Virus genome (UHGV): UHGV-0080740
Length of the DNA: 23,502 nt
Reading direction: 5' to 3' (one strand)
From: a virus
The position numbers and the translations under genes were made by a program. The notes under the pieces were generated by a model. The model ran no database searches, was not told the DNA's origin, and saw only the letters and a list, made by a program, of their open reading frames with translations. Every line of letters begins with the position of its first letter. The first letter of the stretch is position 1. This document shows positions 5,699 through 21,194 of the stretch, piece after piece.

Positions 5699-5943
5699 AA
5701 AAGCGATACTACACAGTAAAGCATGGGACGCTACGAGCATTACAAGAGTTTGCTGACAAGCATAACGTTGAGGTGCGCAGGGAAGGGGGAAGTAAAGCTC
5801 TGCGCATGTACCGTCCGGACGGGAAATGGCGGACGGTCGTCGATTTCAAAACAAACAGCGTTCCCCAGGGCGTCCGCGACCGGGCATTCGAAGAATGGGA
5901 GCAGATCATCATAGATAATGCTCTGCTACTAAATGCTGACTGA
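5695..5943 (+). CDS. lxc: Lxc/Bof-like C1 co-repressor, 82 codons with TTG start
   Basis: 82-codon ORF starting at TTG with SD GGAGA 5 nt upstream; matches my recollection that P1 bof/lxc is an 82-codon TTG-initiated ORF. Confidence 0.55.
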   Translation: MKKRYYTVKHGTLRALQEFADKHNVEVRREGGSKALRMYRPDGKWRTVVDFKTNSVPQGVRDRAFEEWEQIIIDNALLLNAD

Positions 5944-6202
5944 GTTTAATATTACAATATTATCTGGGAGATAAATGCATCTTATTTCCCAGATGATAAC
6001 TGATGTTTTACATATTCACATGGTGTACAATTATAATACTGCCTAAATAGGCACACAAAGTACGATATGCTACTAAAACCACAACTTTTTGATACTTGTT
6101 TGAGGGGGCGGGTTTGCTTTAGTAATTTAATAGCAAAAGCCATTCGTGTATCAAGTAATAACTTACTGAAGGAGGTGTTTTCTAATAAGAGTTTTTTCTT
6201 TA

Positions 6203-6715: not shown

Positions 6716-6855
6716 TCTAAAGAGGCTTTGAACAAGAATAGAGATACAGCAGCACTGAAATCAAGAAGTTGTGCAAAAAATAAAAATATTGATTTGTGTC
6801 ATAGTTGCTGCTTTTTATTATTTAATTTTTATCAATTTCACTACAGATAAATAAA

Positions 6856-6887
6856 TTGACATAGTGTGTAACCCCTGTAAATATAAA
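6856..6887 (+). promoter_or_regulatory. candidate sigma70 promoter for the EAL-domain gene
   Basis: TTGACA at 6856-6861, about 16-17 bp spacer, A/T-rich -10-like TAAATA/TATAAA, about 50 bp upstream of ATG 6938. Confidence 0.35.
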
Positions 6888-6937
6888 GGGCACTTTATCT
6901 GCTAAAGCCAACCAATTTAAAAATAGAGGGTGGGAGC

Positions 6938-7627
6938 ATGGAAGTTATCTACATAGTAGAACCAATCATTTCCACAAGCACTAACAAGTTGATAGCAGTG
7001 GAAGTGTTGAGCAGATTTTATTCCAACGAGGGGGCTATTCTTTCTACTCAGAAAGTATTAGGTATGTTTACAAGCAAGATGAAGATTAACTTGCTAAAAT
7101 CTCAACTTAACACAATAATCAAATATAAGTATTTTTTTGAATGCCATAATATATTATGCTCTATCAATGTAGATTATGATACCTGTTTATATATATATGG
7201 CAATAAACAAATTCAAGAACTACTAATAAACAATAAATTTATAGCGATTGAGATATCAGAAAACTATCCTGATTTAAGCGATGAGGATTACATCATATCC
7301 TTTCTACTGACTTTGACAGATAATGTTTGGCTTGATGATTTTGGAAGTGGTAACGCCACCATGAAAGCATTAATTAAAAATAAATATCATGCAATAAAAC
7401 TTGATAAGTCATTTTTTCAAGAGCATATGATTAAGCCTCATTTTGATGTCATTATTAGCAATTTAAAAAAGTTATGTCCGAATATCATCGCTGAAGGCGT
7501 CGAAAACATTGATTGTCATAAGTTATCAAAAGGGATAGGGCTATGGGGCACTCAGGGATATTTTTTCCCATCAATTCCGCTGACGGAGATTGAGTCCATA
7601 GATAGTAAGTGGCTATCAGATTTATGA
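6938..7627 (+). CDS. stand-alone EAL-domain protein, YdiV-like, 229 aa
   Basis: EAL signatures in order: EVLSR (EAL variant), EISE, DDFGSGNATMKAL, KLDKSF, EGVE, QGYFF; no sensor or GGDEF domain; strong SD GGGTGGGAG. Confidence 0.8.
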   Translation: MEVIYIVEPIISTSTNKLIAVEVLSRFYSNEGAILSTQKVLGMFTSKMKINLLKSQLNTIIKYKYFFECHNILCSINVDYDTCLYIYGNKQIQELLINNKFIAIEISENYPDLSDEDYIISFLLTLTDNVWLDDFGSGNATMKALIKNKYHAIKLDKSFFQEHMIKPHFDVIISNLKKLCPNIIAEGVENIDCHKLSKGIGLWGTQGYFFPSIPLTEIESIDSKWLSDL

Positions 7628-7680
7628 GATGCAGAGAGTTAGGATATTGATATGAACATCTAAGCACCTCATTACTGTGC

Positions 7681-8133
7681 TTAAAAGATGTTATCCTTAC
7701 CTGTTAATTTACCTTGAGGAACTTTAGTGAGCTCCATCCGATAAAATGCTTTTATCATATTTACAAATGGCTCATATGGTGAATATTCGTTGTCTTGTTT
7801 AGTAACGGTGTCTGTCATTGTCCTGATGTAGTCTGCGCTTACCACGTTGTTGTTTGCTTCAATTAGTACCGGCCTGCCGTTCATGAAGGGATCACGCAAC
7901 CTTACACGCTGGCCAACTCGACCGGTAATAAAGCTGTTTTCCTCTTCCACCAGCACGATAAAACCCTTTTCCTCTTTTTCTCGCAATTCGCGCAGCAGCT
8001 GGAGTTCCATATCGCGGCGGCGTTCAGGGTAGCTGGTCCGCTCAGCCATTATCAGCTCATTGTTGATCCATGCAGCAGTCATTGACGCCGGTTTGCCGAC
8101 GCTCATTGAAACAACGCATATTTTCTTATCCAT
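7681..8133 (-). CDS. hypothetical protein, about 150 aa (P1 mat position, between ref and the variable locus)
   Basis: ORF with SD AGGGG before ATG at 8133 (track ORF begins at GTG 8160); name is positional only. Confidence 0.5.
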   Translation of the reverse strand: MDKKICVVSMSVGKPASMTAAWINNELIMAERTSYPERRRDMELQLLRELREKEEKGFIVLVEEENSFITGRVGQRVRLRDPFMNGRPVLIEANNNVVSADYIRTMTDTVTKQDNEYSPYEPFVNMIKAFYRMELTKVPQGKLTGKDNIF

Positions 8134-8321
8134 AGCGCCCCTACAAAAAAGAAAAGCCACCAGCGGCGGCTTAGCAATACAACTGAAGGTAGCGCCCGGT
8201 ACTCAGACTGTGCCGTCCATGGAATATTTGAAAGGGGATCCATCCGTACCGGGCATGTGATGATTCTGACTGAAGTCACTTGTCAGTTGTCAATCATTTA
8301 TCATTAAAAATAATATATTTA

Positions 8322-8882
8322 TTAGTGCATGATGTTTGCCATCTCATAGGCGTCAGCCAGTAACTCCATCTCTGACTTGTTCAGCAGGGTGAATTCTTTC
8401 TTGCCTCCAACCACACCATCGGCATGAACAGGGACCAGCCAGGGGTATTTTGCTCTTACTTCAGCCGGAGCTGCATGCTGGTGGTGCCATCTACAAAGAG
8501 GCAATTGCTTTTTATGACAACCCGGCGCGGTACGACCGGCGATATGGTGCAGAGACATCTCATTAGATATTACTCCATGCATATAGCAGGCAATGCAGGG
8601 GAGAGTGCCAAGAGCATTGGCGATGCGCCGTTCCTCCGCCGTTGGTGTTCTCCCCTTCAAGCCACGAGATTTTATTTTTACCGCGCTTTTCCGCGTTTTG
8701 CTGGCTGGTGGGCGCTCTTTCTGTTTAGCGATACGGCGGTCGAGAGTATCCCGCATTTTCTGATATTGAGATTCTCGCCAGACCGGATCAGCCAACTTCT
8801 CCCGTTGCCGAGCGATCGCTCGTTCTCTGGCTGCCTTCTGCCACTTGCGGCACTGTTCAATTTTTTGTTCGATTGTTTTCAT
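8322..8882 (-). CDS. ref: Ref, HNH-family recombination enhancement endonuclease, 186 aa
   Basis: MKTIEQKIEQCRKWQ... with Cys/His cluster CIACYMHG...HHIAG...CHKK...CRWHH, recognised as P1 Ref; C1 operator upstream. Confidence 0.9.
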   Translation of the reverse strand: MKTIEQKIEQCRKWQKAARERAIARQREKLADPVWRESQYQKMRDTLDRRIAKQKERPPASKTRKSAVKIKSRGLKGRTPTAEERRIANALGTLPCIACYMHGVISNEMSLHHIAGRTAPGCHKKQLPLCRWHHQHAAPAEVRAKYPWLVPVHADGVVGGKKEFTLLNKSEMELLADAYEMANIMH

Positions 8883-8886
8883 ATGG

Positions 8887-8913
8887 CAAAAAAAAGGCGG
8901 CCTAATGGCCGCC
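8887..8913 (-). terminator. rho-independent terminator/attenuator just upstream of ref ATG
   Basis: On - strand GGCGGCC-ATTA-GGCCGCC followed by T8, ending 5 nt before ref start, downstream of ref operator/promoter. Confidence 0.55.
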
Positions 8914-8980
8914 AATGATGTCAAGGAGTGAAGTAATGGCAACGTCTTCGTAGTTGACAAAAACTGCGGCTCAATTATAG

Positions 8981-8997
8981 CGATCTATTAGAGCAAT
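8981..8997 (-). promoter_or_regulatory. C1 operator (Op2-like) overlapping ref promoter
   Basis: - strand ATTGCTCTAATAGATCG matches C1 operator consensus ATTGCTCTAATAAATTT; TATAAT follows on - strand. Confidence 0.75.
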
Positions 8998-9102
8998 GAT
9001 AGATATTTTGTTTATCGCTAATCACATTTTTTCACTTCAGTACCTGTGTGCTATACTCCTTCTTGATTGATTGGATGCGGAATACAAACCCGCTCTTTTG
9101 TG

Positions 9103-9129
9103 CAGCCTGGCTCCTTGCCAGGCTTTTTT
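9103..9129 (+). terminator. hairpin with T8 run (+ strand terminator; on - strand a 5' structure preceding the CCAATCAATCA motif)
   Basis: gcctggc-tcctt-gccaggc followed by tttttttt. Confidence 0.45.
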
Positions 9130-9441
9130 TTATTTCATCATGGAAGTTGTTAACGCTTTGGACCTTGCTGAACTGATTGAGAGGGCTTTGTCAACGTGCC
9201 CCAAAAATTCGCCAAACGCAGACATCACTTTAGCAAAACCGCGCCGTGCTTCTTCCTCGGTGGCATTCATCACGAAATGTTCAGCACCACGCATACTTTT
9301 GACAGGGAACGCAACGGATATTGAATCAATATCAGGCATTCTATCGCTCAGCTTTACAGTGACAATGACGGCTGGCGACTGAATATTAGTGCTTACAGAC
9401 AGCACTACATATTTTCCGTCGATGTTGAAATCCTTTCTCAT
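9130..9441 (-). CDS. hypothetical protein, 103 aa (cra position, downstream of cre)
   Basis: SD GGTGA 3 nt before ATG; C1-operator-like site upstream; preferred over the overlapping + strand ORF 9071-9382, which lacks such signals. Confidence 0.45.
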   Translation of the reverse strand: MRKDFNIDGKYVVLSVSTNIQSPAVIVTVKLSDRMPDIDSISVAFPVKSMRGAEHFVMNATEEEARRGFAKVMSAFGEFLGHVDKALSISSARSKALTTSMMK

Positions 9442-9457
9442 ATGTCACCATAAATAT

Positions 9458-9474
9458 CAAAGAATTAGAGCAAT
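9458..9474 (-). promoter_or_regulatory. C1-operator-like site upstream of the 103-aa gene
   Basis: - strand ATTGCTCTAATTCTTTG, about 12/17 match to operator consensus. Confidence 0.5.
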
Positions 9475-9491
9475 CATTTACGCGTTAATGG

Positions 9492-10523
9492 CTAATCGCC
9501 ATCTTCCAGAAGGCGCACCATTGCCCCTGTTTCACTATCCAGGTTACGGATATAGTTCATGACAATATTTACGTTGGTCCAGCCACCAGCTTGCATGATC
9601 TCCGGTATTGAAACTCCGGCACGGGCCATATCTCGCGCGGCTCCGACACGGGCACTGTGTCCAGACCAGGCCAGGTACCTCTGGCCAGAGTCATCCTTAG
9701 CCCCGTAAATCAATCGGTGAGTTGCTTCAAAAATCCCTTCCAGGGCGCGAGTTGATAGCTGGCTGGTGGGTGATGGCGAGGCAACACCATTTTTTCTGAC
9801 CCGGCAAAACAAGTAGTTATTCGGATCATCAGCCACACCAGAGACAGAAATCCATCGTTCGACCAGTTTAGTTACCCCCAGGCTAAGTGCCTTCTCTACA
9901 CCCGCGGTACTAACCAGAGTTTTCGTTCTGCCAATATGGATTAGCATTCTCCCACCGTCTGTACGTGAGATATCTTTAACCCTGATCCTGGCAATTTCGG
10001 CTATACGTAACAGGGTGTTATAAGCGATCCCCAGAAATGCCAGATTACGTATATCCTGGCAGCGATCGCTATTTTCCATGAGTGAACGAACCTGGTCGAA
10101 ATCAGTGCGTTCGAACGCCAATGCCTGTTTTGCACGTTCACCGGCATCAACGTTTTCTTTTCGAATCCGCCGCATGACCAGTGAAACAGCATTGCTGTCA
10201 CTTGGTCGTGGCAGCCCGGACCGACGATGAAGCATGTTTAGCTGGCCCAAATGTTGCTGGATAGTTTTTACTGCCAGACCGCGCGCCTGAAGATATAGAA
10301 GATAATCGCGAACATCTTCAGGTTCTGCGGGAAACCACTTCCGGTTATTCAACTTGCACCATGCCGCCCACGACCGGCAAACGGACAGAAGCATTTTCCA
10401 GGTATGCTCAGAAAACGCCTGGCGATCCCTGAACATGTCCATCAGGTTCTTGCGAACCTCATCACTCGTTGCATCGACCGGTAATGCAGGCAAATTTTGG
10501 TGTACGGTCAGTAAATTGGACAT
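9492..10523 (-). CDS. cre: Cre tyrosine recombinase, 343 aa
   Basis: MSNLLTVHQNLPALPVDATSDEVRKNLMDMFRDRQAFSEHTWK... recognised as P1 Cre with a few substitutions; loxP 419 bp upstream. Confidence 0.97.
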   Translation of the reverse strand: MSNLLTVHQNLPALPVDATSDEVRKNLMDMFRDRQAFSEHTWKMLLSVCRSWAAWCKLNNRKWFPAEPEDVRDYLLYLQARGLAVKTIQQHLGQLNMLHRRSGLPRPSDSNAVSLVMRRIRKENVDAGERAKQALAFERTDFDQVRSLMENSDRCQDIRNLAFLGIAYNTLLRIAEIARIRVKDISRTDGGRMLIHIGRTKTLVSTAGVEKALSLGVTKLVERWISVSGVADDPNNYLFCRVRKNGVASPSPTSQLSTRALEGIFEATHRLIYGAKDDSGQRYLAWSGHSARVGAARDMARAGVSIPEIMQAGGWTNVNIVMNYIRNLDSETGAMVRLLEDGD

Positions 10524-10530
10524 TTAACAC

Positions 10531-10752
10531 TCAGACAATAGTTTTAAGTAAAGTGTACAGGATTGGCTCTGCCTTTACCTGTTTATGGTTCTCGTCATAG
10601 AAACGCCAGCGACCGCGCGTGCGTTCTATTTTCTCTTCACCGCGCGATAATGACAGTTGGCAACTATCACGATCAAACCCTTTTGCCCGCCAGTAACCAC
10701 GGTTTTTCTCAAGCTCAAGATGAGTGGACACTTTAGCAGCTGAATATCCCAT
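10531..10752 (-). CDS. candidate small basic protein, 73 aa, between loxP and cre
   Basis: SD GAGGTG 4 nt before ATG; stop 8 nt before cre ATG; CCAATCAATCA motif directly upstream of SD. Confidence 0.35.
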   Translation of the reverse strand: MGYSAAKVSTHLELEKNRGYWRAKGFDRDSCQLSLSRGEEKIERTRGRWRFYDENHKQVKAEPILYTLLKTIV

Positions 10753-10782
10753 TTTTCACCTCTGATTGATTGGTGGTGCTAA

Positions 10783-10846
10783 GTGCGCTACGCGAAATCT
10801 GGAGCACTAACACTGCCAACATTTCGCAGATTTTACGTAGCGCAAC
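10783..10846. promoter_or_regulatory. imperfect 20-bp inverted repeat in the cre upstream region
   Basis: gtgcgctacgcgaaatctgg ... cagattttacgtagcgcaac (17/20 complementary) around a 24-nt spacer. Confidence 0.4.
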
Positions 10847-10849
10847 CTT

Positions 10850-10922
10850 GATCAAATGATCAAGTGATCACTATTTGACCTGATAAGGTATTGAACTGTA
10901 TTGATTTACAGGTAAATTGATC
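10850..10922. promoter_or_regulatory. cluster of four Dam sites (TGATCA hexamers) in the cre regulatory region
   Basis: GATC at 10850, 10858, 10866 and 10919; Dam-regulated cre promoters are described for P1. Confidence 0.5.
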
Positions 10923-10941
10923 ATGTTCAATAACCCTTAAG

Positions 10942-10975
10942 ATAACTTCGTATAATGTATGCTATACGAAGTTAT
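10942..10975 (+). other. loxP: loxP recombination site (34 bp)
   Basis: Exact ATAACTTCGTATA-ATGTATGC-TATACGAAGTTAT. Confidence 0.99.
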
Positions 10976-11018
10976 CAGGTCCGAAGAGGAGTTTACGTCC
11001 AGCTGCGCACAAAAATCA

Positions 11019-11035
11019 AGAATTATTAGAGCAAT
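11019..11035 (-). promoter_or_regulatory. C1 operator (Op99-like)
   Basis: + strand gaattattagagcaat is the reverse complement of the operator consensus. Confidence 0.7.
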
Positions 11036-11095
11036 AAATTTTGAGAGAAAAATCCCACTCCACCAGCTAAAAACTGGATTGTTTTTCATAGTTGT

Positions 11096-11122
11096 TTGAC
11101 AATTGCTCTAATAAATTATAGT
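11096..11122 (+). promoter_or_regulatory. coi-c1 promoter with embedded C1 operator (P99-like)
   Basis: TTGACA (11096-11101), ATTGCTCTAATAAATT (11102-11117), TATAGT -10 (11117-11122). Confidence 0.75.
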
Positions 11123-11356
11123 TTTGCCGCCGTTACGTAATACGACTTTGGATTCACTATTTAATGTGTCTTCAGCGTTGTAGAGCGGCTCAGAAGGAAA
11201 TGAGCAAACAGGGAAACCTTATACAACGGCATTACAGCTATGCATTGCTCATCTTACACACAGCGCAATGTTGTTAGATTACCCCAGCATGGATCATGGG
11301 TGAAACAGTAGGTCAGAGCTTCAGGCTCTGTGTTGTCAATACAGTGAGGCATAATT

Positions 11357-11566
11357 ATGGCTTTCATTCAACCAACCATCGACGACGTTAGACATTGCTC
11401 TAACGCTTTATCTGTAGACCCTGCCGAAACCGACGCTGCCCGCACCATTGCTGAACACTACTCAAAGATATCCAATCAGGACTACCGCATCACCCAAGAC
11501 GACCTGGATGACCTCACTGACACAATCGAATATCTCATGGCAACTAACCAGTTAGCCTCACAGTAA
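11357..11566 (+). CDS. coi: Coi, C1 inactivator, 69 aa
   Basis: 69-aa ORF directly upstream of c1 downstream of the operator cluster; size and position match P1 Coi. Confidence 0.8.
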   Translation: MAFIQPTIDDVRHCSNALSVDPAETDAARTIAEHYSKISNQDYRITQDDLDDLTDTIEYLMATNQLASQ

Positions 11567-11583
11567 ATGCACTAATAAATCTA
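11567..11583 (+). promoter_or_regulatory. C1-operator-like site between coi and c1
   Basis: atgcactaataaatcta; core tgcActaataaat has 1 mismatch to the consensus core. Confidence 0.45.
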
Positions 11584-11676
11584 TTATTTTTGTTTAATCC
11601 CTCTATAATATAGGTCAGTAATGACCGGTTTTCTCAGCCGGGCGTTATTGACCATGTCAATTCTGGAGGAGGATCA

Positions 11677-12528
11677 ATGATAAATTATGTCTACGGCGAA
11701 CAACTGTACCAGGAGTTCGTCAGCTTCAGGGATCTCTTTCTAAAAAAAGCTGTTGCACGCGCCCAACACGTTGATGCCGCCAGCGACGGTCGTCCTGTTC
11801 GCCCGGTTGTCGTTCTGCCGTTCAAAGAAACGGACAGCATTCAGGCTGAAATTGATAAATGGACTTTAATGGCGCGGGAACTGGAACAGTACCCAGACCT
11901 CAATATCCCAAAGACTATTTTATATCCAGTGCCTAACATCCTTCGCGGTGTACGTAAGGTTACAACTTATCAGACAGAAGCTGTGAACAGCGTCAACATG
12001 ACCGCTGGCCGCATTATTCATCTGATTGATAAGGATATTCGCATCCAAAAAAGCGCGGGGTTCAATGAGCACAGTGCGAAATACATAGAGAACCTGGAAG
12101 CAACAAAAGAGCTAATGAAGCAGTACCCGGAGGATGAAAAATTCCGTATGCGCGTACACGGCTTTAGCGAAACAATGCTGCGCGTCCACTACATTTCCAG
12201 TAGCCCTAACTACAATGATGGTAAATCAGTTAGTTACCATGTGCCACTGTGTGGCGTGTTTATCTGCGATGAAACCCTCCGTGATGGAATCATCATCAAC
12301 GGTGAATTCGAGAAAGCAAAATTTAGCCTTTATGACTCCATAGAACCGATCATCTGCGACCGCTGGCCGCAGGCAAAAATATATCGCCTGGCAGATATTG
12401 AAAATGTAAAAAAACAAATTGCCATCACTCGCGAAGAGAAAAAGGTCAAATCAGCCGCATCAGTTACGCGCAGTCGTAAAACTAAGAAGGGGCAGCCAGT
12501 AAACGACAACCCCGAAAGCGCGCAATAA
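11677..12528 (+). CDS. c1: C1 repressor of lysis, 283 aa
   Basis: MINYVYGEQLYQEFVSFRDLFLKKAVARAQ... recognised as P1 C1; SD GGAGG. Confidence 0.95.
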   Translation: MINYVYGEQLYQEFVSFRDLFLKKAVARAQHVDAASDGRPVRPVVVLPFKETDSIQAEIDKWTLMARELEQYPDLNIPKTILYPVPNILRGVRKVTTYQTEAVNSVNMTAGRIIHLIDKDIRIQKSAGFNEHSAKYIENLEATKELMKQYPEDEKFRMRVHGFSETMLRVHYISSSPNYNDGKSVSYHVPLCGVFICDETLRDGIIINGEFEKAKFSLYDSIEPIICDRWPQAKIYRLADIENVKKQIAITREEKKVKSAASVTRSRKTKKGQPVNDNPESAQ

Positions 12529-12531
12529 ATT

Positions 12532-12553
12532 ATGCCCGGCATCAACCGGGCAT
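12532..12553. terminator. hairpin terminator between convergent c1 and antirepressor-like gene
   Basis: atgcccgg-catcaa-ccgggcat, A/T-rich flanks on both sides. Confidence 0.5.
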
Positions 12554-12560
12554 TCTTCCA

Positions 12561-13706
12561 TTATTCAGCCGCCACCGGTTTTAACAAGCCAGCATCGAGC
12601 AGTTTACGCGTCAACCACTGTTGTCCTTTCCCCGTTAATTGGGGCGTCAGCCGTATCTGGTAGCCATCTTCATCATCCAGCACCACTTCTTTCACTGTGA
12701 AATATCCGGCGTTTATGTACTGCTGGAACGGCACATTTTTACGCCCGCCGGACGCTATCAGAATGCCGTTCTCCCGTAACCAGGCAAACAGCGCGTTTTG
12801 CTTCAGCCCAACAACCTTTGCAAAATTACCAATCAGGATCCCCTTAGCCACTGATACACGGTCGGCAAAATCGACCTTGGGGGCTGCGGCCACCAGTTGT
12901 TGATTTAGCTGGTGGGCCTTCTGTTCCAGTAGCTGCTTTTGTTCAGCCAGCTCGGCAGCCAGGCGCAAGGCTTCAGGTAGTGTTTGGGGGATTGCGACCG
13001 GTTGCTGTTCTTTTTGCCGGAAGTAGCTGTCTTCCAGTTTTTCAAAGAATGCCCATGCTTCATCTGTGTTTACGATCTTAGACATGCGTGCCGCTCCGCG
13101 TTCGGCCCAAAGAATTACCTGGCTTGTATATTTGCTAACCAGGTGACTAGTAGTCACCAGCCTTTTAAATTCCTTTAATTTTGAACCAGTTAAGAGATAG
13201 TAATGCTTACCTTCTTCAAAGCGATCGGAGTTGCGAGACAAATTTTTACGAATATTAGCTTCATCGGTTCCATACCCCTTAGCAAGAGTTTCGGTCGTTA
13301 CTACACGCACTCCCAGCCATTCCAGAACGGGAATTTCATCAGACTGATTCTGAACAACCACCAGCTCTGATTCCTGAACTGAAGTTGCATGAATTTTTTC
13401 TGATTTAACGTTAGTTGCTTTCATTCTGTGTGCCTCCTTGCGTGCTTCGGCTGCGACGGTTGCGTAATTCAGATGACCCTGTTCGAGCAGGTATTCACGG
13501 ATATCGGTCACAGCGATAGCCTTTAAGCGCAGATAAACATCGCGCTTATCGACATCCAGATGCGGGTATTCCTTTTCAAGAATTGCTGCGAGTTCTTTCG
13601 CTGATAGAAGAGATTTAGTGCGGATCATGTAATCCGCAATCTCGTACGATGTTATTCGTGAGTGATTTATTTCCATGAAGTGGCGTCCCTGCCAGTTAAG
13701 TAACAT
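12561..13706 (-). CDS. antirepressor-like protein with KilA-N/ORF6N-type and KilAC (ANT) domains, 371-381 aa
   Basis: Central segment VRVVTTETLAKGYGTDEANIRKNLSRNSDRFEEGKHYYLLTG fits ORF6N/KilA-N; C-terminus GILIGNFAKVVGLKQNALFAWLRENGIL...NVPFQQYINAGYFTV fits KilAC; alternative start at 13676. Confidence 0.7.
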   Translation of the reverse strand: MLLNWQGRHFMEINHSRITSYEIADYMIRTKSLLSAKELAAILEKEYPHLDVDKRDVYLRLKAIAVTDIREYLLEQGHLNYATVAAEARKEAHRMKATNVKSEKIHATSVQESELVVVQNQSDEIPVLEWLGVRVVTTETLAKGYGTDEANIRKNLSRNSDRFEEGKHYYLLTGSKLKEFKRLVTTSHLVSKYTSQVILWAERGAARMSKIVNTDEAWAFFEKLEDSYFRQKEQQPVAIPQTLPEALRLAAELAEQKQLLEQKAHQLNQQLVAAAPKVDFADRVSVAKGILIGNFAKVVGLKQNALFAWLRENGILIASGGRKNVPFQQYINAGYFTVKEVVLDDEDGYQIRLTPQLTGKGQQWLTRKLLDAGLLKPVAAE

Positions 13707-13776
13707 CCTGTCACCTACTGATTAGCCCATGTCAACTAATCAACGTCGAATATAATACCCTCGATTAAAGAAATAG

Positions 13777-13793
13777 CAATACATTAGAGCAAT
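13777..13793 (-). promoter_or_regulatory. C1 operator upstream of the antirepressor-like gene
   Basis: - strand ATTGCTCTAATGTATTG followed by TATTAT -10-like. Confidence 0.6.
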
Positions 13794-13794
13794 T

Positions 13795-14841
13795 TTATCT
13801 AACGCTCGACGAATGACTTGTGATAGCGCCGACTCCAAGCGCGTAATCAAAGAACAATCGTTGATGCATCGCCAGCCTACCGTGCGTCTTCTCCCAATTA
13901 TCGCGGTCACGCTCAATATCACGCTGGCATGACTGGCACAGAGGAATAGCATAAATGTCATGCGCGCATAATCGACTATAACGAACGATATAAGGCGTAA
14001 TGTGAGCGCCAGCTCCCGCCGCTCCACACCCACAGCATGGACGGGAAGCAACAAAGTCCATGTACTCAGGTAATTTTAGCGATTGCAGTTTTGGTATTTT
14101 GAAATGCGCCATACCTGGGTCGGAGTCAACATCCACAGGGCATACTTTTGCACGCATCGGCGCGGCGCGTTCTTCCATCATCTGAACATATGCTGTAGCG
14201 CGATCGTCATACGGGCGAATATCCGCCTCTTTCAGTGGTCCGCTATCCTGCGGAGTAGCCTTCATCTTATTTATTATTGATATGCGGCAGACTTCTTCCG
14301 GCATCAGGTGCATCATGTTGCGCATGAAAGCCCACCAGCACAGCTCCTGAATACTTAAATCATGGCTATTTGAAAGGCCCATTTCCTGACGGGCGACATC
14401 CAGTATCCAGTTAACGCGATTATTGTGCAGCGTTTCTTTCAGCTCATTAAAACCACGCATCCGGTAATGGTTATCGTGATGCCAGCACAACAACACCGCG
14501 CTATTGTCTCGTTCAGCGTGGACAATATGGTTGTCACACCAACTACGATCTGCGGCCTGGCATTGACCCTCTTTCCTACGCAACCACGCCACCAGCGCGT
14601 CAATTCCACCAATACGGCGAAACAGTTCATCGCTGTTAAAAAACGGCTGCAACGCCTCATTTGTTGCCATGGTTTGCTCGGTAACAACGAGGCCGTCTTC
14701 CATGTGCTCGATTAACTCACGCGGCACCGGCTCCATAATAAATTTACGGCCAGCCTCCACCAGCTTTCTGACCTCCTGATCCACTTTGAACGTGGCGAGG
14801 CCAAGCTCTTTCTGTACAAAGGGAGTAATTACGGCTTTCAC
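13795..14841 (-). CDS. hypothetical protein, 348 aa, with C-terminal Cys/His cluster
   Basis: GTG start with SD AAAGG; C-terminus PCCGCG...HITPY...[15 protein letters not shown] resembles a zinc/HNH-like module; possibly pdcB-position gene. Confidence 0.6.
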
Positions 14842-14868
14842 ATCACACCTTTAATCACTGATTGGGCT

Positions 14869-15048
14869 TTATCTGCTGCCCGACATTATCTGTTTAAGCA
14901 CAACCATTTCCTGACGGCATAACACAGCAATAGCGGTCCTGGCACCAATTTGCTTACTAACCAGGTATTGCTTTATCTTGCGGCGACTCACGCCATCAAG
15001 AAGCATCTTTAACGCTTTACGGGACAATTTGTTGTATTTGCGTGCCAT
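14869..15048 (-). CDS. small basic protein, 59 aa (post-doc position)
   Basis: ATG at 15048 with SD GGAG 8 nt upstream, 4 nt after doc stop; track ORF extends to 15069 inside doc. Confidence 0.45.
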   Translation of the reverse strand: MARKYNKLSRKALKMLLDGVSRRKIKQYLVSKQIGARTAIAVLCRQEMVVLKQIMSGSR

Positions 15049-15052
15049 TAAT

Positions 15053-15433
15053 CTACTCCGCAGAACCATACAATCTACGTAACGTGGCGGCGACAGAAGA
15101 TACAGATATCTCGCCAGTCGCAGCGCCTACAGTAAGGTCTGCCAGTTCAGGTGAATCAAATACCTGCACCCCGTTACGGCGTAGAAATAGCAGCGCACTG
15201 TTTAGCGCGGTACGCTTATTGGCATCATTGAATATATGCCCTCTCGCTGTAGCCACCAGGTAGGTGGCGGAGACTTCGAAAAGGTCGGTGATCTCTTCGT
15301 AGGCAACTCTGGCCTGAACTCTCCCGATAATGGCCTCTGCCCTACCCGGATCTGACATTCCCGGCAGGCCGCCGTAGCGGTTTATATTCGCATCATGAAG
15401 CGCAATAAGTTCTTCCGGTGATATATGCCTCAT
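15053..15433 (-). CDS. doc: Doc toxin (Fic-fold kinase), 126 aa
   Basis: [40 protein letters not shown]... recognised as P1 Doc; TAATG overlap with phd. Confidence 0.95.
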
Positions 15434-15654
15434 TATCGGTTAACCAGTTCCTTGTTGGTGGAGTCCAGGGTGTCAAACAGGGATGCAAATTCAGCATCCA
15501 GCGCCGCTTTTTTGTAGGCTTCGAAAGTAGCCTTGCTGACAATTACTGCTGGCTCACGGCCTCTTCGGGTGATTTCAACCTCTTCCCCGGCTTCAACATT
15601 GTTGAGCACTTCAGAAAGGTTGCCGCGCGCGGTACGGAAGTTAATGGATTGCAT
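15433..15654 (-). CDS. phd: Phd antitoxin, 73 aa
   Basis: [73 protein letters not shown]; SD AGGTG 3 nt upstream. Confidence 0.95.
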
Positions 15655-15660
15655 AAACAC

Positions 15661-15691
15661 CTCGTGTACTCGTTATGTGTACACAATTATA
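15661..15691 (-). promoter_or_regulatory. phd-doc promoter/operator with GTGTAC(AC) palindromes
   Basis: GTGTAC at 15664-15669 and GTGTACAC at 15677-15684, plus TATAAT on - strand. Confidence 0.6.
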
Positions 15692-15726
15692 AACTTCACA
15701 GGCATAAAGCACCAGCACTTTGCAGC

Positions 15727-16116
15727 TTAAATCACCGGACAATCATCAAATTCCCCACTTCGGGCATCATTAATGACATGAGTGATCACACCAAACACAG
15801 CATTACTCCCCGTGCATCCATCGTCATCCACTGGTAACGCCTCTTTCTTCCCGGTGCTTAAATCCTCCAGGTGCTGGCGCGGATACTTTCGGTATCTCTT
15901 TATGCGATATTCACCCTCCATAGCGCACACAAGCAGCGAACCATCAACTGGAGTAAGCGAAGAATCAACCACCAGCAAAGCACCCTGCAATATTCCCTCA
16001 CGGTGATGGCTATCAGCTGCCCGCATGAAGTAGGTTGCTGATGGATGTCTAATTATCTGCTGATCAAGAGAAATTCGGCTTTCAACATAATCCGCCGCAG
16101 GAGAAGGGAAACCCAT
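15727..16116 (-). CDS. humD: HumD, UmuD'-like S24 peptidase-family protein, 129 aa
   Basis: Begins MGFPSPAADYVESRISLDQ... (UmuD-like lacking the N-terminal pro-segment); LexA box upstream. Confidence 0.9.
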   Translation of the reverse strand: MGFPSPAADYVESRISLDQQIIRHPSATYFMRAADSHHREGILQGALLVVDSSLTPVDGSLLVCAMEGEYRIKRYRKYPRQHLEDLSTGKKEALPVDDDGCTGSNAVFGVITHVINDARSGEFDDCPVI

Positions 16117-16134
16117 AGCGTTTTACCTCAAAAA

Positions 16135-16154
16135 TACTGTTTATCTATACAGCA
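16135..16154. promoter_or_regulatory. LexA box (SOS operator)
   Basis: TACTGTTTATCTATACAGCA = CTGT-N8-ACAG; 21 nt upstream of humD ATG and about 140 nt upstream of divergent + strand ORF. Confidence 0.8.
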
Positions 16155-16290
16155 TACATTAAAGAAGCACCTTTGGTGCAAACGCGTTATGTACATCAAC
16201 CACCGCTGATGATTTTTGTGCGCTTTGCTACTATTCATCACCGCGGGATCAGCGTAACCTCGTTGCCAATCAGTTAATAAGGAATTAGCT

Positions 16291-16875
16291 ATGCCTAATC
16301 GCATTCCTCTCGATCCTGTATTGCCCAAAAATTTTGACTGCACTCCTAACGAGAAACGCTCTAAAGCTCAGCTGGACGCCTAGTGGGACCATCCATATGG
16401 GGTTACACAACCTGACGGGAAAATTGTAGTTTATTGTCTGAATGGTGGGGCGTGGGACCGTCCATCCGTGCTTTGTTTGGCAGATAACTATGATGAAGCC
16501 TGTGAACTTGCCGAAAGACAGCAGGCAAGCTGGGTAAAAACACGGTCTGAACCGACATTCATGTTTTCAAAAGAACCGCCATTTATACTGGCGAGGATGC
16601 CGCAGCGACCGGATCATCAACAAGAAATTGTTGCTGAATTTTCCTCAAGGGATGAGATGAATCTCTTCTCATTAAAGCAGGAAGAAAGGGATCGCGTCGA
16701 AGTGTCTCCAACTCTCGACCACAACCGGATGAACCTGGCCCAGCTCGCCTGGTACAGCAAAGAATTAGAGATGTCTATTGCCCGGCTTGAAAACGAAAAA
16801 GCCGCTATCCAAGTCCAGCACGAAGTAGTTCTGAACCGGATTAGAGAAATGCAAAACGATAACAGGGGATTTTGA
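16291..16875 (+). pseudogene. LexA-proximal ORF (lxr position) interrupted by in-frame amber at codon 31
   Basis: ATG 16291 with SD AAGGA 7 nt upstream, in frame with the 135-aa track ORF (16468-16875); single TAG at 16381-16383. Confidence 0.5.
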
Positions 16876-17232
16876 ATGGCTAAAATCGAGTACCATCGCG
16901 ATCGCGGTAATTACCTGGAAATATACGATCATGAATCTCTTAACGATATCAACGATGCGTTATATGAATACTGTGAAAAAACGAGCATCACAGATGCACC
17001 TGATGCATTTGTCGAGCTGCCGGTATATCTCCGCGACATCTATGCAATACGAACACCGCCCGTATCGGTGATTCACATTGGCTATGTCCGCCTGTCCATC
17101 GAAGAAGATGAAGATCGTTATATCGTGCGCCACTATACATTGGACAGAAAAGAACTTCCTAATGAATGGAACATGAGTAATTTCTACAACGGTGAATATG
17201 GCTTAAAATCCGCTAATAATTTACGGTCATAA
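16876..17232 (+). CDS. hypothetical protein, 118 aa
   Basis: ATG overlaps preceding stop (TGAATG), translational coupling; no recognisable domain. Confidence 0.55.
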   Translation: MAKIEYHRDRGNYLEIYDHESLNDINDALYEYCEKTSITDAPDAFVELPVYLRDIYAIRTPPVSVIHIGYVRLSIEEDEDRYIVRHYTLDRKELPNEWNMSNFYNGEYGLKSANNLRS

Positions 17233-17299
17233 TCTATACAGGCATGTATAACAACAACGAGCCTATTAGCTGTCAACAACGTTATTTCCTCAAATAAGA

Positions 17300-17342
17300 A
17301 AAAGCAGAAAACAAATTGTTTAAGGTCACAAATTGTGGCCTT
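17300..17342 (-). terminator. rho-independent terminator for a - strand small gene
   Basis: aaggtcacaa/ttgtggcctt hairpin followed on - strand by a U-rich tract. Confidence 0.5.
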
Positions 17343-17358
17343 GATGGAGGAGGGAGGC

Positions 17359-17580
17359 TTATTGGCTATGGCTAAAAATCAAATTAGACACTTCATGTTG
17401 CTGTAGCTCATCAAGATCCGAGGCCACAAAACCTTTTCCGAAAAACTTCACAAGTAACTCACTAGCCGCATCATTGTCACCTATTACACGAAAGTCATAC
17501 GGCAACGTCGCAAGTTGACGATGTAATCCTGCTGAGAAAGTCGAATCTAACAGCGCCCAGAATTCCCACCGCAGGATAAT
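17359..17580 (-). CDS. candidate small protein, about 73 aa, lacking canonical ATG (possible ATT or TTG start)
   Basis: Open frame ...IILRWEFWALLDSTFSAGLHRQLATLPYDFRVIGDNDAASELLVKFFGKGFVASDLDELQQHEVSNLIFSHSQ ending before the terminator; AAGAGG 5 nt before ATT at 17580. Confidence 0.25.
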   Translation of the reverse strand: MILRWEFWALLDSTFSAGLHRQLATLPYDFRVIGDNDAASELLVKFFGKGFVASDLDELQQHEVSNLIFSHSQ

Positions 17581-18077
17581 ACTCGCCTCTTAATACTGTA
17601 TATATGTTGTTACGATATGTTTTTCTGTCTCTAAAAAAAGATGTTTGAAGGGGATAAAAATATACAATTCCAACAAACGTTATTTTTAACAATTTTTTTC
17701 TTTGCGTTGACTTTCCCGGACACCTTGTCTGACCGAAGGTGCGCGAAAGCCACTTTTTCCTTCCTGAGTTATCCACAAAGTTATGCACTTGCAAGAGGGC
17801 CATTTTCTACATATTGTGGTGGCTAACAGATGAAATGAATGTAGATTAATTGAAGATAAGGAGAAAATTTGAGATGCAATCATGACGTTAATAGATAGGG
17901 TCTGCATTACAGACCCCACCCGCATCAAGGAATTAGCCGTTCCCTGATGTTTTTCCGAAAACATGTGCCGTAAGCTCACGTTAACGACTTTCATTCACCG
18001 AATCCAACTATATAGGGGTTGGGTTTCTACGTCAACGTGAGCAAGTGCACCTTTACATTTGACAAGGAACCACCTGA

Positions 18078-18653: not shown

Positions 18654-19531
18654 ACTTCACCCTCGCTTGTATCACCAGCGTCCACCAACGACAATAAAGC
18701 CCTGGCCATCTTATGAACCAACAGTGCATCAATAATGCCAAGCGTATGCCCCGGCTTAATGTTTAATGCTGCCTCAAGATGACACCTTTCCAGACCGCTT
18801 TTCTCGGCTTGTTTATGATGATATGGCGTAATAACGTCGCCCAAAACACGGCTAATTCTTTCTCGTAATTGCTGGGTGCCAGCACACTTGATCGCTGTAT
18901 CGTGGAGACGGTTAACCAGTTCGCGATAAACATGCGGCTTAATGCGGATACGTTCACCGGTGACGCCCTTTCCTGGCGTAGGCACCGAACTATCCGGAAT
19001 ATCCGGATAGTTGCCAGCCAGTCTACGCAAAACAGCCTTAATTGCATCAATACGGTCATCATCAACTTTTTCTACAATATTGGAATTTAAATACTTCGAA
19101 GCCTTGCTATGCCAATCGCTGGTTTTAGGGTCTTGTCCATCCATCAAACGCCAAGCTTCAGCGATTAACTCATAGCCAGTAACAGTGGCTTCCTGCGCAT
19201 CACCAATCAGTTGTGTGATCTCTCTTTCAAGCATGCTTAGAGCGTTAGGCATTGGTTTTTCTTCCGGTACTACTGGAACGGGGGGAGCGGCGTAGACCTC
19301 AATAATTCCATTATCAATAGGCCATTCTCCATCCTTGAGGTAGTCACTTGTGCCGTCAACTTGCTGTTCTGCAATGTGGAATGCACCTATTGGTTTTGCT
19401 TCCAGTGATGCCAGAGCAATTCGTGCCAGTTCTTCCGCTTCTTCTGCTGGCAGTACAACGTTGCTACCAGGTCCGTATGTTTCGCGCCACTGCTTGATTG
19501 TCAGTAGTCGCTCTTTGGTAATAGTGGTCAT
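18650..19531 (-). CDS. hypothetical protein, 293 aa
   Basis: Long ORF, overlapping start/stop with both neighbours. Confidence 0.6.
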   Translation of the reverse strand: MTTITKERLLTIKQWRETYGPGSNVVLPAEEAEELARIALASLEAKPIGAFHIAEQQVDGTSDYLKDGEWPIDNGIIEVYAAPPVPVVPEEKPMPNALSMLEREITQLIGDAQEATVTGYELIAEAWRLMDGQDPKTSDWHSKASKYLNSNIVEKVDDDRIDAIKAVLRRLAGNYPDIPDSSVPTPGKGVTGERIRIKPHVYRELVNRLHDTAIKCAGTQQLRERISRVLGDVITPYHHKQAEKSGLERCHLEAALNIKPGHTLGIIDALLVHKMARALLSLVDAGDTSEGEV

Positions 19532-20043
19532 GCCGCGTTTCCTTCTTTCTTATTAACAATTACACCGTCATATATTTCATTAAGGTGCCCTCTCAACTCC
19601 ATGCGCCTTAATGCAGATAACATGTAATCGCATTCAACCTGCTTATTTCCAGTAAATGGCTTATCGTCAGGATTACCCCAACAGCAATTACCCTTGGGCC
19701 ACCCATGTACTTTCCGTACTCTTCCGTTAACAACGTGAAGTAATCCCCAGCCAGGTGGTAAATCCTCAATTGAAATAATTCCCGGCTCACTAATAAAGAA
19801 TCGCCAGTCGCCCATTCCAAGAGACGGATTTTTACGAAAACGCTTTTTTCTATCTGCCAACAAGTCAGCACGAGAACACTTCGCCTCTATCAGGCATGAT
19901 GCTGAATTTCTGAATCCCATAGCATCTGGCTGTTCTCCGGTACTGGTTACAGCTATAAAGCGGTCATGAAAACAAACCTTGAACCCGTTGCGCTTAAGGA
20001 ACTTGTACGCAATCTGACAGAGTTCGCGGTGTGTTAACGCCAT
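19528..20043 (-). CDS. hypothetical protein, 171 aa, possible PD-(D/E)xK nuclease fold
   Basis: D-x(n)-EAK arrangement (PDAMGF...CLIEAKCS); fold assignment tentative. Confidence 0.5.
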   Translation of the reverse strand: MALTHRELCQIAYKFLKRNGFKVCFHDRFIAVTSTGEQPDAMGFRNSASCLIEAKCSRADLLADRKKRFRKNPSLGMGDWRFFISEPGIISIEDLPPGWGLLHVVNGRVRKVHGWPKGNCCWGNPDDKPFTGNKQVECDYMLSALRRMELRGHLNEIYDGVIVNKKEGNAA

Positions 20044-20044
20044 A

Positions 20045-20411
20045 TCACTCTCCTTTGATGCGAATGCCAGCGTCAGACATCATATGCAGATACTCAACTG
20101 CATCCTGAACCCATTGACCGCCAATCCCGTAATAGCGATGCGTAATGATGTCGATAGTTACTAACGGGTCTTGTTCGATTAACTTCCGTAGAAACTCTTC
20201 CAGGTCACCAGTGCAGTGCTTGATGACAGGAGTTTTCCCAGGATGGCGAACAACAAGAAACTGATTTCCGACTTCACGGACTTCGTTGCTTTCCAGTTCT
20301 GCTATCCATAAAAATGAAATGGACGCTAACGCCAGCTTTTCGCTGTGCTTCCATCAGATGAACGAGATAAGCCGATGTTCGTCCACCTGAAAAGCTGACG
20401 ACTTGATGCAT
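20045..20411 (-). pseudogene. PP-loop ATPase-like gene (SGGxxS motif) split by a frameshift
   Basis: Frame A MHQVVSFSGGRTSAYLVHLMEAQRKAGVSVHFIFMDSRTGKQRSP stops at 20274-20276; the -1 frame is open from 20353 to 20045; frames overlap 20274-20353. Confidence 0.45.
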
Positions 20412-20420
20412 ACTCACGGT

Positions 20421-20999
20421 TTATTCCTGAATGCGCTTAAACTCGATTACCCATACCAACGGGTTAGATAGCCAGTTATCCTGCCCGTAAATACTGCGCC
20501 AGATATCACCAAAACCAACGCGATAAACAGCTTCAGATGGCGTAATCTTGTACGTCGCCGGAGTTGCGCCTTCTGCTTTAGCATCTTCCTCGCTCATGTC
20601 ATGCAGCCGTTCCACACGCACGTCGGTAATTTCCAAAAGAATGCGCGATGCCCAGCGCGGCATGTGAATTGATGGCGTCCACTTTTCTGATACTGGTTTA
20701 TTACAAACCTCGACCGGAACCCGGTGCGTTTGTTCTGTCCAGGAGTTACGCACGCTTGCGCGATAAACCAGCGTTGCGACGTCCGTCGCTTTGCCATGTA
20801 CCCGGTAGGTTTCGCGAACCCAAATACGATCGCCCGGTTGACCATATGGACAATGCTTGGCAAGCAACTCTGCGGCCACTGCCCGTCCATAGAATTTTTC
20901 TTCAACAATCCTGCGAGTCTGTGTTTTATTCCCGCCAAGAATTGCCCGGACCATCTCATCGTTAAAAATCATGCCGCGCTCTTTCACTTCGCCTTTCAT
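20421..20999 (-). CDS. hypothetical protein, 192 aa, ASCH/PUA-like N-terminus (tentative)
   Basis: N-terminus IFNDEMVRAILGGNKTQTRR resembles the ASCH GxKxxExR region. Confidence 0.55.
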   Translation of the reverse strand: MKGEVKERGMIFNDEMVRAILGGNKTQTRRIVEEKFYGRAVAAELLAKHCPYGQPGDRIWVRETYRVHGKATDVATLVYRASVRNSWTEQTHRVPVEVCNKPVSEKWTPSIHMPRWASRILLEITDVRVERLHDMSEEDAKAEGATPATYKITPSEAVYRVGFGDIWRSIYGQDNWLSNPLVWVIEFKRIQE

Positions 21000-21008
21000 G
21001 CATCCCCC

Positions 21009-21095
21009 TTACCCATGTGCGACGATGCCGCCAAAAGTGATAGAGAACAGCCAGAAATAGATCGCGGCCATAATGATTTTGAATGCCGTGTTCAT
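21009..21095 (-). CDS. candidate hydrophobic micro-protein, 28 aa
   Basis: MNTAFKIIMAAIYFWLFSITFGGIVAHG; SD AGGAG 8 nt upstream; CCAATCAATCA just upstream of SD. Confidence 0.35.
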   Translation of the reverse strand: MNTAFKIIMAAIYFWLFSITFGGIVAHG

Positions 21096-21123
21096 ATTTT
21101 CAGCTCCTGTGATTGATTGGATA

Positions 21124-21149
21124 CATGCCGCGCCTTGCGGCATGTTTTT
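21124..21149 (+). terminator. hairpin plus T-run (+ strand terminator; on - strand a 5'-UTR stem-loop downstream of C1 operator)
   Basis: catgccgc-gcctt-gcggcatg followed by tttttatttt. Confidence 0.45.
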
Positions 21150-21177
21150 ATTTTCACTTTCTCTGTTTTAAAAATCA

Positions 21178-21194
21178 TTATTTATTAGAGCAAT
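21178..21194 (-). promoter_or_regulatory. C1 operator
   Basis: - strand ATTGCTCTAATAAATAA, 15/17 to consensus; at the 3' end of the HAD-like gene, upstream of the micro-ORF/ASCH operon. Confidence 0.7.

Follow-up and report, generated by a model that had tools for sequence, protein, structure and literature searches.

A P1-like phage-plasmid lineage that has probably lost its packaging genes and most of lpa through one deletion

Lpa is the late promoter activator of P1, and PacA and PacB are the proteins that cut at pac. The genes in this part of the P1 genome (NC_005856) read phd-doc-pdcA-pdcB-lpa-pacA(pac)-pacB-c1, an order that the preliminary description of the present locus had given correctly. 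We analyzed a stretch of 23,502 nucleotides of the virus genome UHGV-0080740 (hereafter the window), in which the interval between c1 and doc (positions 12529–15052) measures 2,524 bp, in agreement with the earlier estimate of about 2.5 kb, and the equivalent interval of P1 is 4.6 kb. The locus raises the question of what became of the late activator and packaging genes, which the preliminary description answered by proposing that the element may be packaging-defective or organised differently. Our analysis points to a descendant of a P1-like phage-plasmid that very probably lost the packaging genes, pac and most of lpa by one deletion.

Three ORFs are located within the interval according to the ORF list, tblastn, Pfam and PHROG, namely an ORF of 381 aa, PdcB and PdcA (Table 1). 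Neither PacA nor PacB of P1 has a match in the window (tblastn with P1 queries, E ≤ 1e-3); pQ502, where both genes are found, served as the positive control for this search. As had been proposed from the sequence, a Walker A motif is absent from all three interval proteins, and no terminase family was matched when 17 different larger ORFs of the window were scanned against Pfam and PHROG. The P1-type pac array, which consists of 4+3 TGATCA/G hexamers and lies inside pacA, was not found in the window. The sole TGATCA cluster in the window (10849–10918) was considered as a pac-like site and rejected, because it comprises only four sites, lies between the cre-cra genes and lox and does not form a 4+3 array. 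The claim that the interval holds no pac or lpa genes consequently holds for pacA, pacB and pac but not for lpa, of which codons 1–66 are present.

Table 1. Features of the c1-doc region of the window (positions in the window).
Feature	Position	Strand	Evidence
c1, primary immunity repressor, intact, 283 aa	11677–12528	+	tblastn: 99.3% identity to P1 C1, residues 1–283
GC-rich hairpin, terminator-like	12532–12553	none	Pattern scan: 9-pair stem, 6 GC pairs; sequence read directly
Chimeric lpa::ant ORF, 381 aa	12561–13706	-	BPP1_LPA, ORF6N and ANT (Pfam, PHROG)
ant-derived part: codons 56–370 of a 370-aa Ant paralogue plus stop codon	12561–13508	-	Pfam; collinearity with pRHB07-C04_2
Deletion junction	13508–13509	none	blastn breakpoints; pRHB07-C04_2 has 3,760 bp more (L024 6110–9869)
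lpa remnant: start codon and codons 1–66	13509–13706	-	P1 homology; Pfam BPP1_LPA
Promoter Plpa	-35 at 13774–13779, -10 at 13752–13757	-	Promoter scan: TTGCTA-16-TATTAT, 13779–13752
C1 operator Olpa	13777–13793	-	100-bp match to annotated P1 region
pdcB, 348 aa, DUF968	13795–14841	-	98.3% identical to P1 PdcB (tblastn); Pfam DUF968; PHROG 96
pdcA, small basic protein	14869–15069	-	92% identical to P1 PdcA (tblastn); PHROG 3345
doc, toxin gene of the phd-doc addiction module; bounds the interval on the right	15053–15433	-	ORF list; collinear with P1 and SJ46 doc

Two of the three interval genes had been described accurately, namely the 348-aa protein rich in Cys and His (PdcB, with 12 Cys and 15 His residues) and the small basic protein (PdcA, with 17 Lys and Arg residues; the ORF encodes 66 aa and the RefSeq annotation 59 aa). 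The RefSeq annotation of P1 lists pdcB as an HNH endonuclease, and the Pfam family Fic is matched on the doc gene of related contigs. The remaining gene had been called antirepressor-like, which is correct only in part since its first 66 codons are lpa. Its stop codon and that of c1 are convergent and separated by a 32-bp spacer containing the hairpin, which is called terminator-like on a consensus match only.

The composition of the 381-aa ORF follows from the points where similarity to P1 breaks off. The P1-like backbone is interrupted at 12527/12528, where P1 homology stops at the c1 stop codon, and at 13508/13509 in the middle of lpa, where homology restarts (window position 13509 corresponds to P1 position 90188, within lpa at 89991–90443). 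Residues 1–66 represent the N-terminus of Lpa; Lpa residues 1–77 align at 87% identity (tblastn), and the remnant matches positions 1–60 of 131 in the BPP1_LPA profile of Pfam and positions 1–69 of 148 in PHROG 1704. The Pfam domains of the chimera are ORF6N (residues 128–211) and ANT (KilAC, PF03374; residues 269–370, E = 2.8e-32), the latter being the C-terminal domain expected of an Ant antirepressor. The product as a whole is 51% identical to P1 Ant1 and retains the Met aligned with the start of P1 Ant2. The native N-terminus of Ant is gone together with translational control by c4 and icd (ant codons 1–55, icd and c4 are deleted), and C4 and isrK RNAs were not detected in the window. Upstream of the ORF, the Plpa/Olpa region differs by one mismatch in 100 bp from P1 89898–89998, where both elements are annotated; Plpa and Olpa are intact and would now drive the chimera. 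A comparison of the chimera with solved structures returned only spurious matches to ribosomal L9.

The undeleted state is represented by pRHB07-C04_2 (CP057976) and pQ502 (NZ_CP127257), where the layout is c1 / ant-icd-c4-isrK-like RNA / pacB-pacA-lpa-pdcB and where the C4 and isrK RNAs are detected. Both share with the window the c1/ant junction, the ant paralogue (94–97% identical DNA) and the flanks; they differ in that they keep the isrK-like RNA, c4, icd, pacB, pacA and lpa, a full-length ant of 370–372 aa and a full virion gene set across 93–98 kb, with a second immI-like module adjoining c1. Positions 7854–13508 of the window are collinear with pRHB07-C04_2 (L024 455–6109) from c1 through ant at 95.3% identity. 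The presence of an immunity-type module between pacB and c1 in this lineage explains the ant-like gene beside c1. Of the two alternatives offered in the preliminary description, packaging-defective is therefore the one supported, and organised differently is true only with respect to this extra module of isrK-like RNA, c4, icd and ant.

We propose an ancestor with the layout c1 / ant <- icd <- c4 RNA <- isrK-like RNA <- pacB <- pacA(pac) <- lpa <- pdcB <- pdcA <- doc, in which one non-homologous deletion of about 3.76 kb would have fused lpa codon 66 to ant codon 56. Missing on the lpa side are the C-terminal 84 codons of lpa (67–150), LPpac as the late promoter, pacA together with its pac site, and pacB; missing relative to the ancestral layout are also the isrK-like leader, the antisense RNA c4, icd and codons 1–55 of ant. 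The nucleotide junction, GCTGTG/ACCGAT, is codon-exact and in frame and is situated in unique sequence without a repeat. A microhomology-mediated deletion, as suggested by a 10-bp overlap in the first blastn comparison, was rejected since a three-way comparison with pRHB07-C04_2 as the closer parental allele leaves no shared bases at the junction; an IS-mediated deletion was rejected since there is no IS at the junction. On sequence grounds the event would be one of illegitimate recombination. Extrapolating from P1 biology, the late promoters could then no longer be activated, concatemers could be neither cut nor packaged, and the element would be locked in the plasmid state.

The identical junction is found in both distinct complete plasmids that carry it, namely pMRE162 (NZ_CP119405; 76.8 kb, three substrain records, from a strain isolated in 1949) and pMTY9803_untypable1 (NZ_CP135674; 61.4 kb). 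Retrieval by exact protein match places the chimeric protein on 168 public contigs; the carriers are 99–99.9% identical, and the best collinear contig is 99.91% identical to the window. The two complete plasmids are 99.7–99.9% identical to the window and share with it both the truncation of darB and the boundary beyond pmgS. In the window and pMTY9803, a foreign Phd/RelE segment abuts the darB 5' end, and an IS3 element lies 11 bp from the boundary beyond pmgS. They differ from the window in that pMRE162 lacks the segments corresponding to 2718–3818 and 20039–21629, and in that res/mod replaces the low-GC EAL island of the window in pMTY9803, where ISVsa5 has also inserted. In at least three further plasmids pacAB was lost by different deletions at the same locus, and these do not yield the same fusion.

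The alternative of relocation, in which lpa and the packaging genes would lie at another place on the replicon of a still intact but differently ordered phage-plasmid, has some basis in that P1-like gene order varies, with the extra c4-icd-ant module located between pacB and c1 in many relatives. Moreover, the evidence from complete plasmids comes from relatives of the replicon of the window rather than from that molecule, and a 98-kb contig (L013; CAXJUW010000004.1, GCA_964046225.1) has the same fusion with a full-length darB, from which it follows that some junction carriers may retain more phage genes (the remaining ~77 kb of this contig lie outside the comparison). Nevertheless, tblastn finds no match to PacA or PacB anywhere in the complete pMRE162 or pMTY9803_untypable1, and about 70% of the backbone is missing from these plasmids; because both lack PacA and PacB, the genes appear to have been lost and not relocated. 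The preliminary description had named, as the finding that would speak against it, the presence of pacAB and lpa in intact form at another site of the replicon, and neither complete carrier bears this out. In addition, the 5' third of lpa is still in its original place and fused to ant, which is a signature of deletion and not of transposition, and two further truncations are common to the window and the complete carriers. We consider relocation very unlikely. Even less credible, to the point of being negligible, is an assembly or sequencing artefact in which a collapsed or chimeric contig accounts for the short interval: many carriers are short-read draft contigs, which is nothing specific, but the junction sequence is 100% identical across four complete circularised long-read records of two unrelated origins, both Illumina and Nanopore reads went into the MRE162 assemblies, 168 independent contigs agree, and the junction does not fall in a repeat.

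A different question is whether Lpa(1–66)::Ant(56–370) is itself a selected, functional gene, acting as a C1-controlled antirepressor or a dominant-negative Lpa and thereby causing the deletion to persist. In its favour, the reading frame runs through the fusion, the lpa start codon is kept along with its C1-repressed promoter and operator, as are both Ant domains and the Ant2-aligned Met, and the exact sequence recurs on the 168 contigs with a junction that extends from the 1949 strain to recent assemblies. Against this, an in-frame outcome is expected by chance in about one case in three, and codon 175 of the copy in pMRE162 is a nonsense codon, which makes the chimera dispensable in that plasmid. 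Its conservation is uninformative because the carriers are 99–99.9% identical, and the other pacAB deletions at the locus form no such fusion. When the chimera was aligned with P1 Ant1 by BLASTP, the match ran on into the Lpa-derived residues, which prompted the idea of a homology-guided swap of the Ant N-terminus for that of Lpa; this was rejected because Lpa gives E > 9 against either Ant, and the N-termini being non-homologous, there was no like-for-like domain swap. We regard a functional chimera as improbable, and it is equally improbable that the chimera is a domesticated regulator, freed from control by c4 RNA and icd and wired directly to C1. Were it functional, a dominant-negative Lpa fragment would block late transcription of superinfecting P1-like phages, and either function would aid persistence of the plasmid lineage. 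Most likely the deletion produced the in-frame ORF incidentally and left the C1-repressed lpa promoter, operator and start codon in place.

The deletion reading is in accord with what remains of the backbone. A functional P1-like phage-plasmid (Punavirus) would have a full-length Lpa as well as PacA, PacB and pac; the window retains 66 of 150 lpa codons and none of the latter three, and pMRE162 and pMTY9803 also lack PacA and PacB. These complete carriers keep 30–32% of pQ502 and about 30% of a P1-like backbone, namely replication, partition, cre-lox, c1 and phd-doc, and relative to pQ502 they lack the tail-fibre, holin, lysozyme, head-processing, ban/dnaB, immI/repL, kilA and sit-type regions; the complete set for virion, lysis and lytic replication is thus absent from them. 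C1 immunity, Cre-lox and Phd-Doc are present in the window, where the 343-aa cre ORF and the lox-adjacent region as well as doc and phd are collinear with P1. A RepA-type initiator and ParA/ParB, encoded outside the window, are annotated in pMRE162 and pMTY9803, which accordingly have the autonomous replication and partition of a P1-derived defective plasmid. Gene content points to a loss of phage function and would explain why the element is unable to behave as a phage.

The junction provides a base-exact example of the transition from phage-plasmid to plain plasmid, in which one deletion would have eliminated the master activator of the late genes along with the packaging machinery, and its presence in a strain isolated in 1949 dates the loss. 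The repeated independent hits at the locus are compatible with either recurrent selection against the lytic programme or simple decay by mutation. There is also a consequence for surveillance, where such plasmids would be miscalled as P1-like phages by P1-like replicon typing and by PCR for markers such as pdcB, pmgS or phd-doc, and by their gene content these plasmids should be unable to transduce themselves.

Compared with known systems, the window is 96–98% identical to P1 and SJ46 over c1-coi-lox-cre-ref and over lpa(5')-pdcB-pdcA-doc-phd-humD, pmgT/U/V, pap and pmgS, and has the same Plpa/Olpa control region. In P1 and SJ46, however, lpa-pacA(pac)-pacB adjoin c1, whereas the window lacks the packaging genes and has a 981-bp ant-derived segment in place of 3,043 bp of P1 (90189–93231). 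The immI operon of P1 (c4-icd-ant1/ant2) has the same order of c4 RNA, icd and ant as the ancestral module, and the ant part of the chimera is nearly identical to P1 Ant1 in the C-terminal KilAC region; the ant module of the window lineage is a second copy at a locus other than P1 immI, with an ORF6N middle domain, and in the window c4, icd and an N-terminus of the Ant1 type are gone from it, and it stands behind Plpa instead. In P1-like elements, pacA belongs to the 21 genes that are most conserved (PMC9603915), and P1-like phage-plasmids become plasmids through gene loss (PMC10879196). The window is a member of this published class of P1-like phage-plasmids decayed into plain plasmids, which that study characterizes as P1-related replicons with many conserved P1 genes, devoid of essential phage functions and maintained as plasmids with cargo genes, a description that fits the present lineage. 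The kind of decay is hence already known and nothing here is new in kind. The lpa::ant junction and its recurrence at the locus do not appear in the part of PMC10879196 consulted, which describes the class by gene repertoire.

Sequence comparison identifies the 23.5-kb window as a segment of a P1-family replicon, matched at 96–98% identity by Salmonella phage SJ46, P1, P7 and many E. coli P1-like plasmids. Two complete plasmids match at higher identity, namely pMRE162 of E. coli MRE162 (NZ_CP119405, 76,855 bp; 99.9%), from which window segments 2718-3818 and 20039-21629 are missing, and pMTY9803_untypable1 (NZ_CP135674, 61,392 bp; 99.7–99.9% over most of the window length). The searched collections contain no exact match; among collinear draft contigs the nearest, GCA_037355595.1, shows 17 differences in 20.9 kb. 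Window segments 16826-17738 and 19020-20943, which have no P1 counterpart, belong to the accessory regions that vary within the P1 family; the former, matched by SJ46, occupies the place of hot and the lxr end in P1, and the latter is matched by SJ46 only in part. At the ISVsa5 insertion point of pMTY9803 (window 19877-19885), the blastn pieces overlap by 9 bp, an overlap that fits a target-site duplication, with the window as the uninterrupted state.

The P1 record gives the order phd, doc, pdcA, pdcB, Olpa/Plpa (C1 operator and lpa promoter), lpa, LPpac, pacA, pacB and then the convergent c1, in agreement with the preliminary description, which places lpa-pacA-pacB between the post-doc genes and c1. 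The c1-doc interval, put there at about 2.5 kb, measures 2,524 bp versus 4,583 bp in P1, and its reported antirepressor-like gene, Cys/His-cluster protein and small protein correspond to a chimeric 381-aa ORF, PdcB and PdcA. The claim that the interval lacks Walker A or terminase features, and the window any such gene, is likewise borne out: tblastn with P1 PacA and PacB found no match in the window, none of the three interval proteins has a Walker A motif, and no terminase family came up when 17 different larger window ORFs were scanned against Pfam and PHROG. The claimed absence of a late-activator gene holds for full-length Lpa only, as the first 66 Lpa residues persist in the 381-aa ORF. 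The sole TGATCA cluster in the window, four Dam sites within 70 bp (10849-10918) between the cre-cra genes and lox, resembles a pac array only superficially, having one arm rather than 4+3 and lying outside pacA.

Features discussed in the text (L024, undeleted region of pRHB07-C04_2, CP057976; L008, region of pQ502, NZ_CP127257; L006, L007 and L025, loci of the plasmids named)
Feature	Position	Strand	Remarks
lpa	P1 89991-90443		
pacA	P1 90529-91722		pac cleavage sites near 90805-90813
pacB	P1 91722-93206		
c1	P1 93231-94082		convergent
Non-P1 Phd/YefM-RelE pair	window 138-425 and 422-673	-	within 138-673
darB remnant	window 1172-5224		1,350-aa ORF; P1-like homology starts at 1256
170-aa ORF	window 6203-6715	-	in low-GC island
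EAL-domain gene	window 6938-7627	+	in low-GC island
c1	window 11677-12528	+	
381-aa chimeric ORF	window 12561-13706	-	
Remnant of second immI-like module	window 12561-13508		
Olpa and Plpa	window 13752-13793		intact; 1 mismatch in 100 bp vs P1
PdcB	window 13795-14841	-	DUF968; 12 Cys, 15 His
PdcA	window 14869-15069	-	
doc	window 15053-15433	-	
Second immI-like module	L024 5162-6757		pRHB07-C04_2
Second immI-like module	L008 10948-12284		pQ502
pSF10EC-2 deletion	L024 6196-9689		locus L006 8510-8776
pTetA_020022 deletion	L024 7217-10060		locus L007 9710-10815
pYLMB64a deletion	L024 6479-9884		locus L025 4271-4659

P1 homology continues past the end of pdcB, through Olpa and Plpa, into lpa up to window 13509 (P1 90188). 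The 381-aa ORF has the start codon of lpa, and its residues 1-66 are Lpa (positions 1-60 of 131 in Pfam BPP1_LPA and 1-69 of 148 in PHROG 1704); the remainder carries ORF6N and ANT (KilAC) antirepressor domains and retains a Met aligned with the P1 Ant2 start. In the complete plasmids pQ502 (98.3 kb) and pRHB07-C04_2 (93.6 kb), a 370-372-aa ant paralogue directly follows c1 and is preceded by an icd-like gene, upstream of which Rfam identifies C4 antisense RNA and an isrK-like RNA. This set is a second immI-like module (immI being the P1 immunity operon c4-icd-ant) inserted between pacB and c1; the canonical c4-icd-ant-kilA-repL region is also present elsewhere in pQ502. Many P1-like plasmids carry such a module (isrK-like RNA, C4 antisense RNA, icd-like gene and a 370-aa ant whose middle domain is ORF6N) between pacB and c1, beside the canonical immI region, and we found no discussion of it in the accessible portions of the literature on P1-like elements. 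A paralogue of the PacB N-terminus lies outside the pac operon in pQ502 (15589-16335 in region L022; 35% identity to P1 PacB residues 11-259, E=6e-45) and is absent from pMRE162 and pMTY9803.

The window's collinearity with pRHB07-C04_2 extends from ref past c1 and into ant (L024 455-6109, window 7854-13508) and resumes in mid-lpa (L024 9870-12118, window 13509-15760); the deleted span is L024 6110-9869, or 3,760 bp. The junction, in coding orientation ...GCT GTG / ACC GAT ATC..., joins Lpa Val66 in frame to Ant Thr56, with no bases common to both parental sequences. Of Lpa, residues 67-150 are lost, together with LPpac, both pac genes and the pac site within pacA; on the ant side the deletion took the isrK-like RNA, c4, icd and the first 55 residues of Ant. 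An Rfam scan of the whole window gave no family above threshold.

The search of full replicons for packaging genes, proposed earlier, could be made in complete junction carriers. Just four complete records match the 221-bp junction sequence at 100% identity, three of pMRE162 substrains and pMTY9803_untypable1. By tblastn, neither plasmid has a match to PacA or PacB anywhere, and Lpa is represented only by residues 1-77, at the fusion; all three queries were recovered from pQ502 as a positive control. The two plasmids match no more than 30-32% of pQ502. They keep a RepA-type initiator, ParA, ParB, genes 23, 22 and 21, pmgS, pmgT, pmgU, pmgV, humD, phd-doc, pdcAB, c1, coi, cre, ref and part of darB, and lack pQ502's regions for tail fibre, holin, lysozyme, head-processing protein, replicative helicase, Dam methylase, icd/ant/kilA/repL and large transglycosylase, in place of which they carry cargo that includes an autotransporter, genes for cellulose synthase and several IS copies. 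Two further truncation points are common to the window and pMTY9803. The darB gene lacks its 5' part and adjoins a foreign Phd/YefM-RelE toxin-antitoxin pair at a junction that is the same in the window, pMRE162 and pMTY9803; the P1-like backbone ends just past pmgS, where pMTY9803 has an IS3 element 11 bp away. From the shared truncations and the absence of PacA and PacB in the complete carriers, we infer that the window's own molecule probably belongs to this degraded lineage, its packaging genes having been lost rather than moved.

Window 5940-7853 is a low-GC island (31-40%, versus ~47-50% in the adjacent backbone) at a site that holds the res/mod restriction genes in P1 and pMTY9803. The cellulose synthase (bcs) genes of the complete relatives belong to a c-di-GMP-regulated pathway.

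Going by the established functions annotated for the P1 genes, the late promoters would stay silent without Lpa, and without PacA, PacB and pac DNA would be neither cut nor packaged. Such an element would thus be passed on only vertically, as a low-copy plasmid stabilised by Par, Cre-lox and Phd-Doc, with C1 still made. Because Plpa and Olpa are retained, the chimera should be under C1 repression. That this C1-controlled Lpa'-'Ant protein has acquired a function is very improbable, given that an in-frame outcome arises by chance one time in three, the N-termini of Lpa and Ant are non-homologous, the carriers are too alike for their conservation to inform, and the pMRE162 copy (NZ_CP119405 8148-9293) has a nonsense codon at position 175, where a C-to-A change at ORF nt 524 (window 13183) turns Ser175 into a stop. 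RefSeq treats that copy as a pseudogene; the window copy is open.

The exact 381-aa protein occurs on 168 contigs in public databases, of up to 162 kb, where its annotation reads only "phage antirepressor Ant". The deletion is old, since it is present in a strain isolated in 1949; the MRE162 paper does not mention the plasmid's phage ancestry. Packaging-gene loss at this locus is also recurrent, as three other P1-like plasmids have lost pacAB through other deletions in the stretch from lpa to the immI-like module, each with its own end points (see the table), a lower bound biased to deletions of such shape because the query demanded both flanks.

PMC9603915 reports pacA as one of the 21 genes most conserved in P1-like elements, and this high conservation makes its absence a good sign that an element is defective. 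That P1-like phage-plasmids turn into plasmids when genes are lost has already been published (PMC10879196). The window, likewise a P1-like element turned plasmid through gene loss, is a well-resolved further case of that known class and no new kind of system.
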